The notes: generated by a model not told the origin, from the sequence alone. A stretch of 2,469 nucleotides of DNA from Escherichia coli (GCF_003334255.1 NZ_QOWU01000133.1), one strand, 5' to 3'. Shown: positions 1,833 through 2,169, counted from the stretch's first letter. Translations and numbers: made by a program.

Positions 1833-2111
1833 GAGAAAATGATAATGATTATCAGTTGCAACAAAATCCAGTTTCTTCCACCATCGCACCGGACGAGCGA
1901 CCATGAGGGGACAACGCCACGCTCCGTTAACGCGGTAAACCCCGGTGTGTATCGTTTTTGATTATCCCCGCACACTCGCGCAGAGGAGTCTCCCGGTAGG
2001 GCTGCGGTCTCTGTTCATGTGGGAATACGGCGACGATACTGCGCAAAGACATGCTTCAGAAATACATAAGTAAACTAAAATATTGTATCTCTGTGGCTAA
2101 TTACGTAAATT

Positions 2112-2135
2112 GGTGGCTTGGCCCCTTTAGCCACC
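2112..2135. terminator. Candidate hairpin downstream of Rz (7-bp stem GGTGGCT/AGCCACC, 10-nt loop); weak terminator-like structure
   Basis: Inverted repeat GGTGGCT (2112..2118) and AGCCACC (2129..2135) seen directly. On the Rz-sense transcript it is followed by AAUUUAC, a poor U-tract, so intrinsic-terminator function is uncertain. Confidence 0.25.
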
Positions 2136-2169
2136 GGCAAATCTTCAGCGGATTATCCTTGGCCGGTTT

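Follow-up and report, generated by a model that had tools for sequence, protein, structure and literature searches.

The stretch of Escherichia coli DNA analyzed here (2,469 nucleotides of NZ_QOWU01000133.1, assembly GCF_003334255.1; hereinafter the window, by which the whole stretch is meant) is a lambda-type cos region in reverse orientation, such that the minus strand reads in the order Rz/Rz1, the interval of interest, cosQ, cosN, Nu1 and A. Escherichia phage PhiR5_1 is the sole phage record that spans the entire window, at 99.1% identity and with an agreeing gene order. The position of cosQ was transferred from the annotation of phage 434 (L005 24-30) by way of the alignment of L005 11-51 with window positions 1813-1854. 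The features of the locus are as follows:

2170-2469, minus strand: 3' part of Rz (i-spanin), from the PhiR5_1 annotation, with 81% nucleotide identity to lambda Rz
Equivalent to window 2170-2637, minus strand: the Rz CDS of PhiR5_1, from its annotation
2232-2417, minus strand: Rz1 ORF embedded in Rz, 61 aa, with the motif LVVSAC and a proline-rich stretch
2170-2172, minus strand: TAA stop codon of Rz, read from the sequence
~2098-2169, minus strand: untranslated tail of the Rz module, ~72 bp, which goes with the Rz type of the window
2113-2136, minus strand: hairpin GGTGGCT...AGCCACC inside the Rz-module tail
2101-2108: palindrome TTACGTAA inside the Rz-module tail, read from the sequence
2046-~2097, no strand assigned: AT-rich lineage-specific spacer, ~52 bp, with relatives only in the PhiR5/PhiR12 group
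1867-2045, minus strand: conserved structured RNA element, 179 nt, running from 2045 to 1867 in the sense of the late transcript
1833-1866, no strand assigned: flank of the cos module, left of cosQ, 34 bp, shared with lambda
1826-1832, minus strand: cosQ, GGGTCCT (aggaccc on the window plus strand), from the 434 annotation via alignment
1791-1802, minus strand (reverse complement): 12-nt cohesive-end sequence of cosN, GGGCGGCGACCT, read from the sequence
1066-1614, minus strand: Nu1, small terminase subunit, a 182-aa ORF, from the PhiR5_1 annotation
From 1094 leftwards, after Nu1, minus strand: A gene, from the PhiR5_1 annotation

The LVVSAC motif of the Rz1-like ORF is read as a putative lipoprotein signal. 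At the other end of the interval, the cosQ heptamer and the cohesive-end sequence both lie on the late strand with Nu1 and A downstream, as in cos sites of the lambda type; GGGCGGCGACCT matches the left-end sequence of lambda. Window positions 1813-1854 show 90% identity to the right end of lambda, and include a perfect palindrome, TGATAATGATTATCA (1840-1854), situated 7 nt from cosQ, with an identical palindrome in lambda at an equal distance from its cosQ. This palindrome may be a candidate protein-binding site of the cos region. By eye it looks like a Fur box, and a related palindrome, GAAAATGATAACCATTATCG, is seen in another cos type.

Between these two modules, the Rz-cosQ interval occupies positions 1833-2169 and measures 337 bp. 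The first-pass annotation had placed about 340 bp of apparently non-coding DNA between the Rz stop (2170) and cosQ (1832), and was right on both the length and the absence of conserved genes: the interval contains only short ORFs, none of which is conserved in relatives. It had likewise correctly given a lambda counterpart of about 2 kb with bor, which spans ~2,045 bp from the end of Rz at 46427 to cosQ at ~48473-48479 (mapped via alignment), with bor, lambdap78 and lambdap79 in between. The short interval by itself is ordinary mosaic variation. In terms of composition, it comprises the 179 bp element, 34 bp of the cos module, the Rz tail of ~72 bp and ~52 bp of lineage-specific DNA. A moron cassette, that is, an ORF with its own transcription signals, was not found, there being no conserved ORF in 1833-2169. 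Promoter-like sites occur at chance level in a scan (2 sites against 1.0 +/- 1.0 expected), and a scan of 1600-2469 recovered no terminator-like site on either strand. One promoter-like sequence from the chance-level scan, TTTACG-16-TACAAT at 2082-2109 on the minus strand, is aimed at the element and overlaps TTACGTAA. The late-sense fold of 2046-2175 is unremarkable (z = -1.89).

A search with the 337 bp alone sharply partitions the interval, in that positions 1866-2045 of the window (34-213 of the interval) match ~400 phage records at 75-94% identity, including 434, Stx1/Stx2 phages and Salmonella phage S137, and the remainder of the interval matches six records. Over the ~400 phage records and E. 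coli genomes the conservation of the element amounts to 75-100%, and it is present in 4,143 of 5,426 complete E. coli genomes (~76%), which together carry it at 11,124 sites (median 2 per genome, maximum 11). PGAP places no annotation over it in nearly all of the E. coli genome matches listed; some records annotate small hypothetical proteins across it. The ends were defined from 120 loci that a pattern scan recovered in viral contigs, after removal of duplicates: they are sharp, running in the late sense from TGCGC to GAAGAAACYGGA (window 2045 down to 1867), with copies of 165, 166, 167, 171, 176, 178, 179 or 180 nt. In lambda itself, a covariance model places an unannotated copy of full length between bor and lambdap78 (46868-47032), divergent in its 3' domain; an initial interpretation that lambda carries only half of the element was discarded on this basis, BLAST having seen only the 5' half because the lambda 3' domain has diverged. 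The copy in the DLP12 prophage of K-12 is located between borD and ybcV.

The element occurs irrespective of the type of terminase, being found with the lambda Nu1/A type (window, lambda), the TerS/TerL of P27 and P13374, and the Sp9/Sp10 type, which additionally features an annotated 'DNase' gene. In P27 and P13374, whose terminase is unrelated to Nu1/A, the block still follows the lysis cassette and precedes the gene for the small terminase subunit. The lambdoid prophage ZH063 has no match to the element at E<=1 despite sharing the Rz type and Rz tail of the window; between Rz and its P27-family terminase are a hypothetical gene, a YfbU-family gene and an HNH endonuclease gene. A scan of species-representative genomes with the core pattern added no wider taxonomic diversity, returning only 7 loci; two of these are named Escherichia records, and the remainder (MAGs or unrelated taxa) are taken for putative contamination. 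Plasmids supply matches at 691 places, and those listed span only the 5' domain. One of these, on NZ_CP010149 (L136 2495-2597), places the 5' domain beside iss, ending short of a neighboring IS remnant, in a fragment of a lambdoid lysis region with Rz and Rz1 pseudogenes and IS remnants close by; this locus fits a phage origin of iss from the bor locus.

The Rfam search for small RNAs suggested by the first-pass annotation produced nothing in 1833-2169 at E<=10 (Rfam 15), because the element is absent from Rfam; nor was there a match over the lambda, S137 and APEC O1 copies at E<=1. Specifically, the models RF02702, RF02703, RF02676 and RF02076 (AgvB, AsxR, Esr41 and STnc100) do not match it. 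Literature on the element sequence, on borD/ybcV intergenic RNAs and on structured RNAs of lambdoid late transcripts furnished no description, though the bulk catalogue PMC10690425 might list it among its uncharacterised candidates. Hence, the element is apparently an undescribed and very widespread structured RNA, and represents a new RNA family, though one of a general type that is well known. A conserved RNA that its author might have failed to recognize was one of the findings that the first-pass annotation had named as overturning its account, and such an RNA is what the interval contains. Its view of a stripped-down right arm survives insofar as no accessory genes lie between Rz and cos, and fails insofar as the interval does not amount to a scar: the conserved RNA element takes up 179 of the 337 bp.

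A structure was proposed from 41 non-redundant copies, with seven nested helices (H1-H7) and two interleaved stems (S1, S2). In the coordinates of the window, all on the minus strand, it is made up of the following parts:

1949-2039: 5' domain, closed by the long-range helix H1
2033-2039 with 1949-1955: H1, which closes the 5' domain
2021-2027 with 1963-1969: H2, 5' domain
2017-2019 with 1971-1973, and 2013-2014 with 1974-1975: H3, 5' domain
2002-2006 with 1979-1983: H4, 5' domain, uncertain
1999-2001 with 1992-1994: H5, 5' domain
1867-1943: 3' domain, ending in an H-type pseudoknot
1941-1943 with 1907-1909: H6, 3' domain
1931-1935 with 1917-1921: H7, 3' domain
1897-1901 with 1883-1887: S2, pseudoknot stem, 3' domain
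1889-1893 with 1867-1871: S1, pseudoknot stem, 3' domain
1872-1882: loop 3, UGGUGGAAGAAAC, purine-rich and nearly invariant

The 5' domain thus presents a stack from H1 to H5 of ~27 bp, broken by several loops, among them the internal loop AAUCAAAAAC, which is unpaired and conserved. Across the whole element, little or no variation is seen in the unpaired AAUCAAAAAC and GAGUGUGC or in the loop GGAAGAAAC. In the 3' domain the arms follow each other in the order S2 5', S1 5', S2 3', S1 3', as is characteristic of an H-type pseudoknot.

Several lines of evidence from the alignments bear on this structure. Among the 41 copies, standard pairs account for 98.3% of the cells, and both positions have changed at 13 pairs; when the partners are displaced by 1-3 columns, only 34-61% of the cells pair. 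None of 500 column shuffles attains the observed value on any of five measures, a statistic that overstates independence in that the copies are related to each other. A covariance model built with S1 and without S2 was then used to realign 81 copies, 54 of them distinct and with lambda and K-12 included; in these 54, pairing holds in 98.5% of the cells, and compensatory changes on both sides are seen at 15 pairs. Although S2 was omitted from the model, 97.7% of its cells are paired and three of its pairs are doubly changed; the values for S1 are 97.0% and four. Further, in one variant S2 (UCGC/GCGA) has been swapped in its entirety for the unrelated complementary pair UGCCAG/CUGGCA; in lambda and DLP12 it is degenerate. 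An independent RNAalifold prediction recovered seven of the nine helices (H1, H2, H3, H5, H6, H7 and S1) and left H4 ambiguous. An alternative long-range helix, CACCGG (columns 100-105) with CCGGUG (columns 156-161), was rejected by eye on the grounds that it is uncompensated where S1 is compensated. Taken as a single sequence, the window copy folds no more stably than shuffled versions on either strand (z = +0.8 and +1.4).

The same alignments are informative regarding the strand. The helices that pair in 98.3% of cells on the late strand do so in 88.6% on the opposite one, G·U-only pair types number 22 on the late strand versus 7 on the opposite (191 versus 13 cells; one-sided binomial p ~0.004 for the types), and the consensus folding energy is -40.4 kcal/mol as against -20.5. 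Together, the G·U asymmetry and the consensus energy imply that the RNA runs from Rz to cos to Nu1. On the strength of these comparative data, the element can be regarded as shown to evolve under selection for a specific, if still predicted, RNA fold on the strand of the late transcript.

Protein-coding explanations fare poorly in comparison. None of the six reading frames is open in all 41 variants, the best being open in 17 and the other five in 0-6, and the copies differ in length by 1, 2 or 4 nt, that is, not by multiples of three. As the frames are not conserved and the indels are not multiples of three, the hypothesis of a small ORF was rejected. More generally, the 337 bp might be viewed as a non-functional leftover or deletion scar of accessory genes, or as the seat of a hidden small protein gene. 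The ~52 bp at 2046-2097, which are lineage-specific, AT-rich and flanked by breakpoints, lend themselves to such a view, as do the small hypothetical proteins annotated over the element in some records. However, the other 285 bp consist of conserved modules and the substitutions in the element compensate each other in pairing, so that, together with the reading frames and indels, very little credence can be given to this possibility.

The flanks of the element differ strikingly from its interior. Fourteen unrelated families abut its 5' end and 14 its 3' end, in 34 combinations, with the junctions invariably at these two points. On the Rz side, relatives have no cargo, bor, a Rha-like gene or others, and on the side of cos and the terminase genes they have DUF1398 genes, DUF3950 genes, lambdap78/79, an annotated 'DNase' gene or, as in the window, none. 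The comparison of relatives for accessory genes, which the first-pass annotation had advised, thus returned variable cargo: bor in lambda, 434 and P27, a Rha-like gene in P13374, orf82/83 in S137, DUF1398 and YlcI genes in APEC O1, and genes of unknown function in a further locus, L070. In L070, two copies of the element (1072-1249 and 2857-3035), 1.6 kb apart in a single contig, enclose two late-sense ORFs, namely phrog_2571 (286 aa) and phrog_3054 (149 aa, which looks like a membrane protein); PADLOC returned no defence-system match for this bracketed cassette. The same locus has an ORF resembling nucleoside 2-deoxyribosyltransferases between Rz and the first copy. In one group of loci (L015; flank families U10 and D9), a hairpin-forming sequence, GTGCGACCGTGGTCGCAC, is found on both sides of the element at ~10-20 nt from its ends, and in a related flank it precedes a T-rich run in the manner of a terminator.

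The position relative to the upstream genes is also patterned. The element begins 6-15 nt past a late-sense stop codon in 69 of 131 loci, most often 9 nt past the TAA of Rz (33 loci), 15 nt past a TGA (22) or 6 nt past a TGA (13), and the distance to the next downstream ORF varies from 4 to ~850 nt. In the window, lambda and 434, it lies 124 to ~440 nt from the last late-sense stop, and so adjacency to a stop codon is not required.

In the window, the full 124-bp spacer between Rz and the element is restricted to 6 phage records and 16 E. coli genomes. Its Rz-proximal portion is far more widespread, 2098-2169 or 2117-2169 being matched at 84-93% in ~550 E. coli genomes, and in APEC O1 and ZH063 the Rz-proximal 53-72 bp likewise abut Rz. 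Homology breakpoints at 2045/2046, ~2097/2098 and ~2116/2117 enclose the stretch 2050-2110 and TTACGTAA. Both the AT-rich stretch at 2055-2110 and the palindrome at 2101-2108 to which the first-pass annotation had drawn attention are indeed present, and its proposal of a moron hotspot at 2050-2110 is partly upheld by the variable cargo of relatives and by breakpoints that bracket the stretch. It requires amendment as to where exchange is centered: judging from the distribution of flanks, the main exchange points are the ends of the element, at 1866/1867 and 2045/2046, and not the AT-rich stretch as such. The spacer at 2046-2097 may itself be a recombination scar.

This arrangement raises the question of whether the element acts as DNA, for example as a linker or boundary maintained for promoting module exchange by recombination, as a binding site for a protein or as a fold of single-stranded DNA, with the RNA fold being incidental. 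Conserved linkers at module junctions have reportedly emerged from the comparative genomics of the lambdoid phages HK97/HK022 and HK620; on this subject, PMC4104026 cites Juhala et al. 2000. The element resembles such linkers in being a conserved non-coding boundary stretch with unrelated flanks in different phages and a site of mosaic exchange. However, the linkers are short and interpreted purely as DNA recombination points, whereas the element is ~180 bp long and displays compensatory base-pair changes and strand-specific G·U pairs, which imply that selection acts on RNA. Both ends being exact mosaic junctions with 34 flank combinations, and the two copies that bracket the L070 cargo cassette, would fit a DNA-level role; additionally, DNA hairpins tolerate G·T, such that the asymmetry alone cannot separate RNA from single-stranded DNA. 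On the other hand, homologous recombination requires identity, yet 15 pairs are doubly substituted with pairing kept and a whole stem has been replaced by an unrelated complementary pair in one variant. Moreover, a double-stranded DNA site predicts no strand asymmetry of G·U pairs, and the occurrence with unrelated terminases speaks against a packaging site. On balance, a role confined to DNA appears improbable.

Genes on the opposite strand also approach the element. In lambda, the antisense gene lambdap78 (L004 1133-1143, equivalent to 47032-47042) and in 434 a DUF3950 gene (L005 394-399) end 4-10 nt from the 3' end of the element, and transcription therefore converges on it from two directions. 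It might accordingly be asked whether the functional RNA is made from the plus strand, as the 3' UTR or terminator of the convergent genes (lambdap78/ybcV, ylcI DUF3950, ECs_1967) or as an antisense sRNA of the lysogen. Such a proposal would account for the close approach of the antisense gene in lambda, 434 and APEC O1 and for the conserved run CGTTTTTG on the plus strand, and a strong Hfq-bound antisense 3' end adjoins the element in Sp9 and Sp10 of Sakai. Closer inspection of these two prophages argues otherwise. The candidate RNAs EcOnc11 (Sp10) and EcOnc12 (Sp9) were considered as opposite-strand RNAs of the element and rejected after calibration of the coordinates, those of the Hfq-CRAC paper being ~137 lower than in NC_002695.2 when set against the Rfam match of AgvB. 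Their peaks lie on the strand opposite to the element, 22-70 nt past its 3' end, and coincide with a canonical intrinsic terminator, CTGCTGTGACTCCAACACGGCAG followed by T7 (minus strand; L139 5946-6005 in Sakai Sp10, L140 ~5650-5707 in Sp9), which is located at the 3' end of the antisense gene ECs_1967/ECs_1788 and stops ~10 nt before the element. No other published RNA signal is known close to the element than EcOnc10/11/12. EcOnc10 (Sp12) probably maps to the equivalent terminator, from a near-identical signal. Hence, the antisense gene in Sp9 and Sp10 has a terminator of its own that ends before the element. Further, many loci have no adjoining antisense gene, the scan of the window found no terminator-like site on either strand, and the G·U types and cells, together with a consensus energy twice as good, favor the late strand, leaving a plus-strand RNA an unlikely account.

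The known small RNAs of lambdoid prophages offer a further point of comparison. AgvB and AsxR occupy the insertion site of pR', which precedes the lysis genes; PasA and PasC adjoin the holin and lysozyme genes, PasB (NC_011601 1466260-1466305) lies between the tail genes I and J, and PasD adjoins Q. In an Rfam search of the Sakai loci, AgvB and STnc100 were recovered at their own positions, away from the element, and identity with AgvB/AsxR, Esr41, STnc100 or the Pas sRNAs was rejected by position and model. These sRNAs (AgvB, AsxR, Esr41, STnc100, PasA-D and EcOnc10/11/12) share with the element a non-coding nature, conserved positions in E. coli lambdoid prophages and proximity to insertion sites of accessory genes. 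They differ in being short and Hfq-dependent with terminators, whereas the element has neither a promoter nor a terminator. An intrinsic terminator is not discernible in the element either, the sequence after its 3' end being unconserved and having no conserved U run.

A trans-acting non-coding RNA might nevertheless be envisaged, which would be set free from the late transcript or, in some phages, be expressed from promoters borne by the flanks, and bind a host or phage protein or RNA, for instance to sequester a regulator, a nuclease or a defence component. The high conservation of the unpaired AAUCAAAAAC, GAGUGUGC and GGAAGAAAC, a compact pseudoknot of a kind typical of ligand-binding RNAs, discrete ends that are independent of the neighboring genes, and the up to 11 copies per genome would all be in keeping with such a function, and in the window the promoter-like site 2109..2082 sits 30 nt upstream. 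However, neither a promoter nor a terminator is conserved in the block itself, and the promoter-like match is no better than chance; the commonest arrangement leaves merely 9 nt between the Rz stop and the element; and in uninduced EHEC no Hfq-CRAC peak is listed inside the element in Sp9 or Sp10. A trans-acting role thus has a modest probability, although the invariant unpaired bases and the pseudoknot give it genuine scope.

We instead favor, as a tentative reading to which we would assign a probability of roughly 0.45, the view of the Rz-cos interval as a mosaic joint organized around a conserved RNA, which is a candidate cis-acting domain for processing or stability at the end of the lysis and accessory segment. 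Since the conserved block brings neither promoter nor terminator and is bordered by variable sequence on either side, the element is most likely made within the Q-antiterminated late transcript from pR'. There it would act in cis, as an RNA domain that closes the lysis/accessory segment on its 3' side, and could serve as a processing site or a barrier to ribonucleases by which the lysis and packaging portions of the late mRNA would be given their stability. Its start near stop codons and the variable distance to downstream genes indicate a 3' element of the lysis/accessory module as opposed to a leader of the terminase genes. As a by-product, the conserved DNA would provide shared homology between phages for homologous recombination, and with such a shared stretch accessory genes could be gained, lost and exchanged exactly at its two ends.

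The preference for a processing or stability role in cis comes from a likeness to the RNase III sites of phage T7. These are irregular helices with internal loops just past a stop codon, and the stable 3' hairpin shields the upstream message. Like R0.3 and R1.1 of T7, the element is a structured segment between the cistrons of a long polycistronic phage transcript. The analogy has its bounds, as the T7 sites are single hairpins of ~50-60 nt, without a pseudoknot and repeated along the genome, whereas the element has ~179 nt, two domains, a pseudoknot and conserved unpaired bases, and occurs once per phage at a fixed junction. A second precedent is provided by the put sites of HK022, antitermination elements that consist of two stem-loops of ~70 nt immediately past the early promoters and have the polymerase that transcribes them as their target. 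The put RNAs, too, are structured RNAs in lambdoid phage transcripts with a cis-acting, untranslated function; the element is unlike them in lying several kb from pR', in being larger and pseudoknotted, and in occurring in phages that use Q.

The region in lambda is dispensable for plaque formation (literature summarised in PMC10695390); as lambda tolerates its loss in the laboratory, any role of the element has to be accessory or conditional. Further, a simple barrier to exonucleases would not obviously need conserved unpaired nucleotides and a pseudoknot, features that point to a specific ligand instead. Extending this line of thought, the element could represent a new class of phage non-coding RNA, ~180 nt long, pseudoknotted and made late by lambda and the majority of E. 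coli lambdoid prophages, with a specific partner; by binding or sensing a factor of host or phage, it might coordinate the switch from lysis to packaging and head genes, or counter a host nuclease or defence system. We consider this extension speculative and rather unlikely. If it were correct, lambda, the best-studied phage, would still carry an unrecognized functional RNA gene.

If the reading of the interval as a mosaic joint around a cis-acting RNA is true, the late operon of lambda and its relatives, the Shiga-toxin phages included, holds a structured RNA that has been missed by annotation pipelines and by Rfam, and annotators would gain a new covariance model for it. The element would, additionally, mark the exact joint at which the serum-resistance genes bor/iss and other accessory genes are exchanged, and would thereby help account for the transfer of such cargo among phages and to plasmids.
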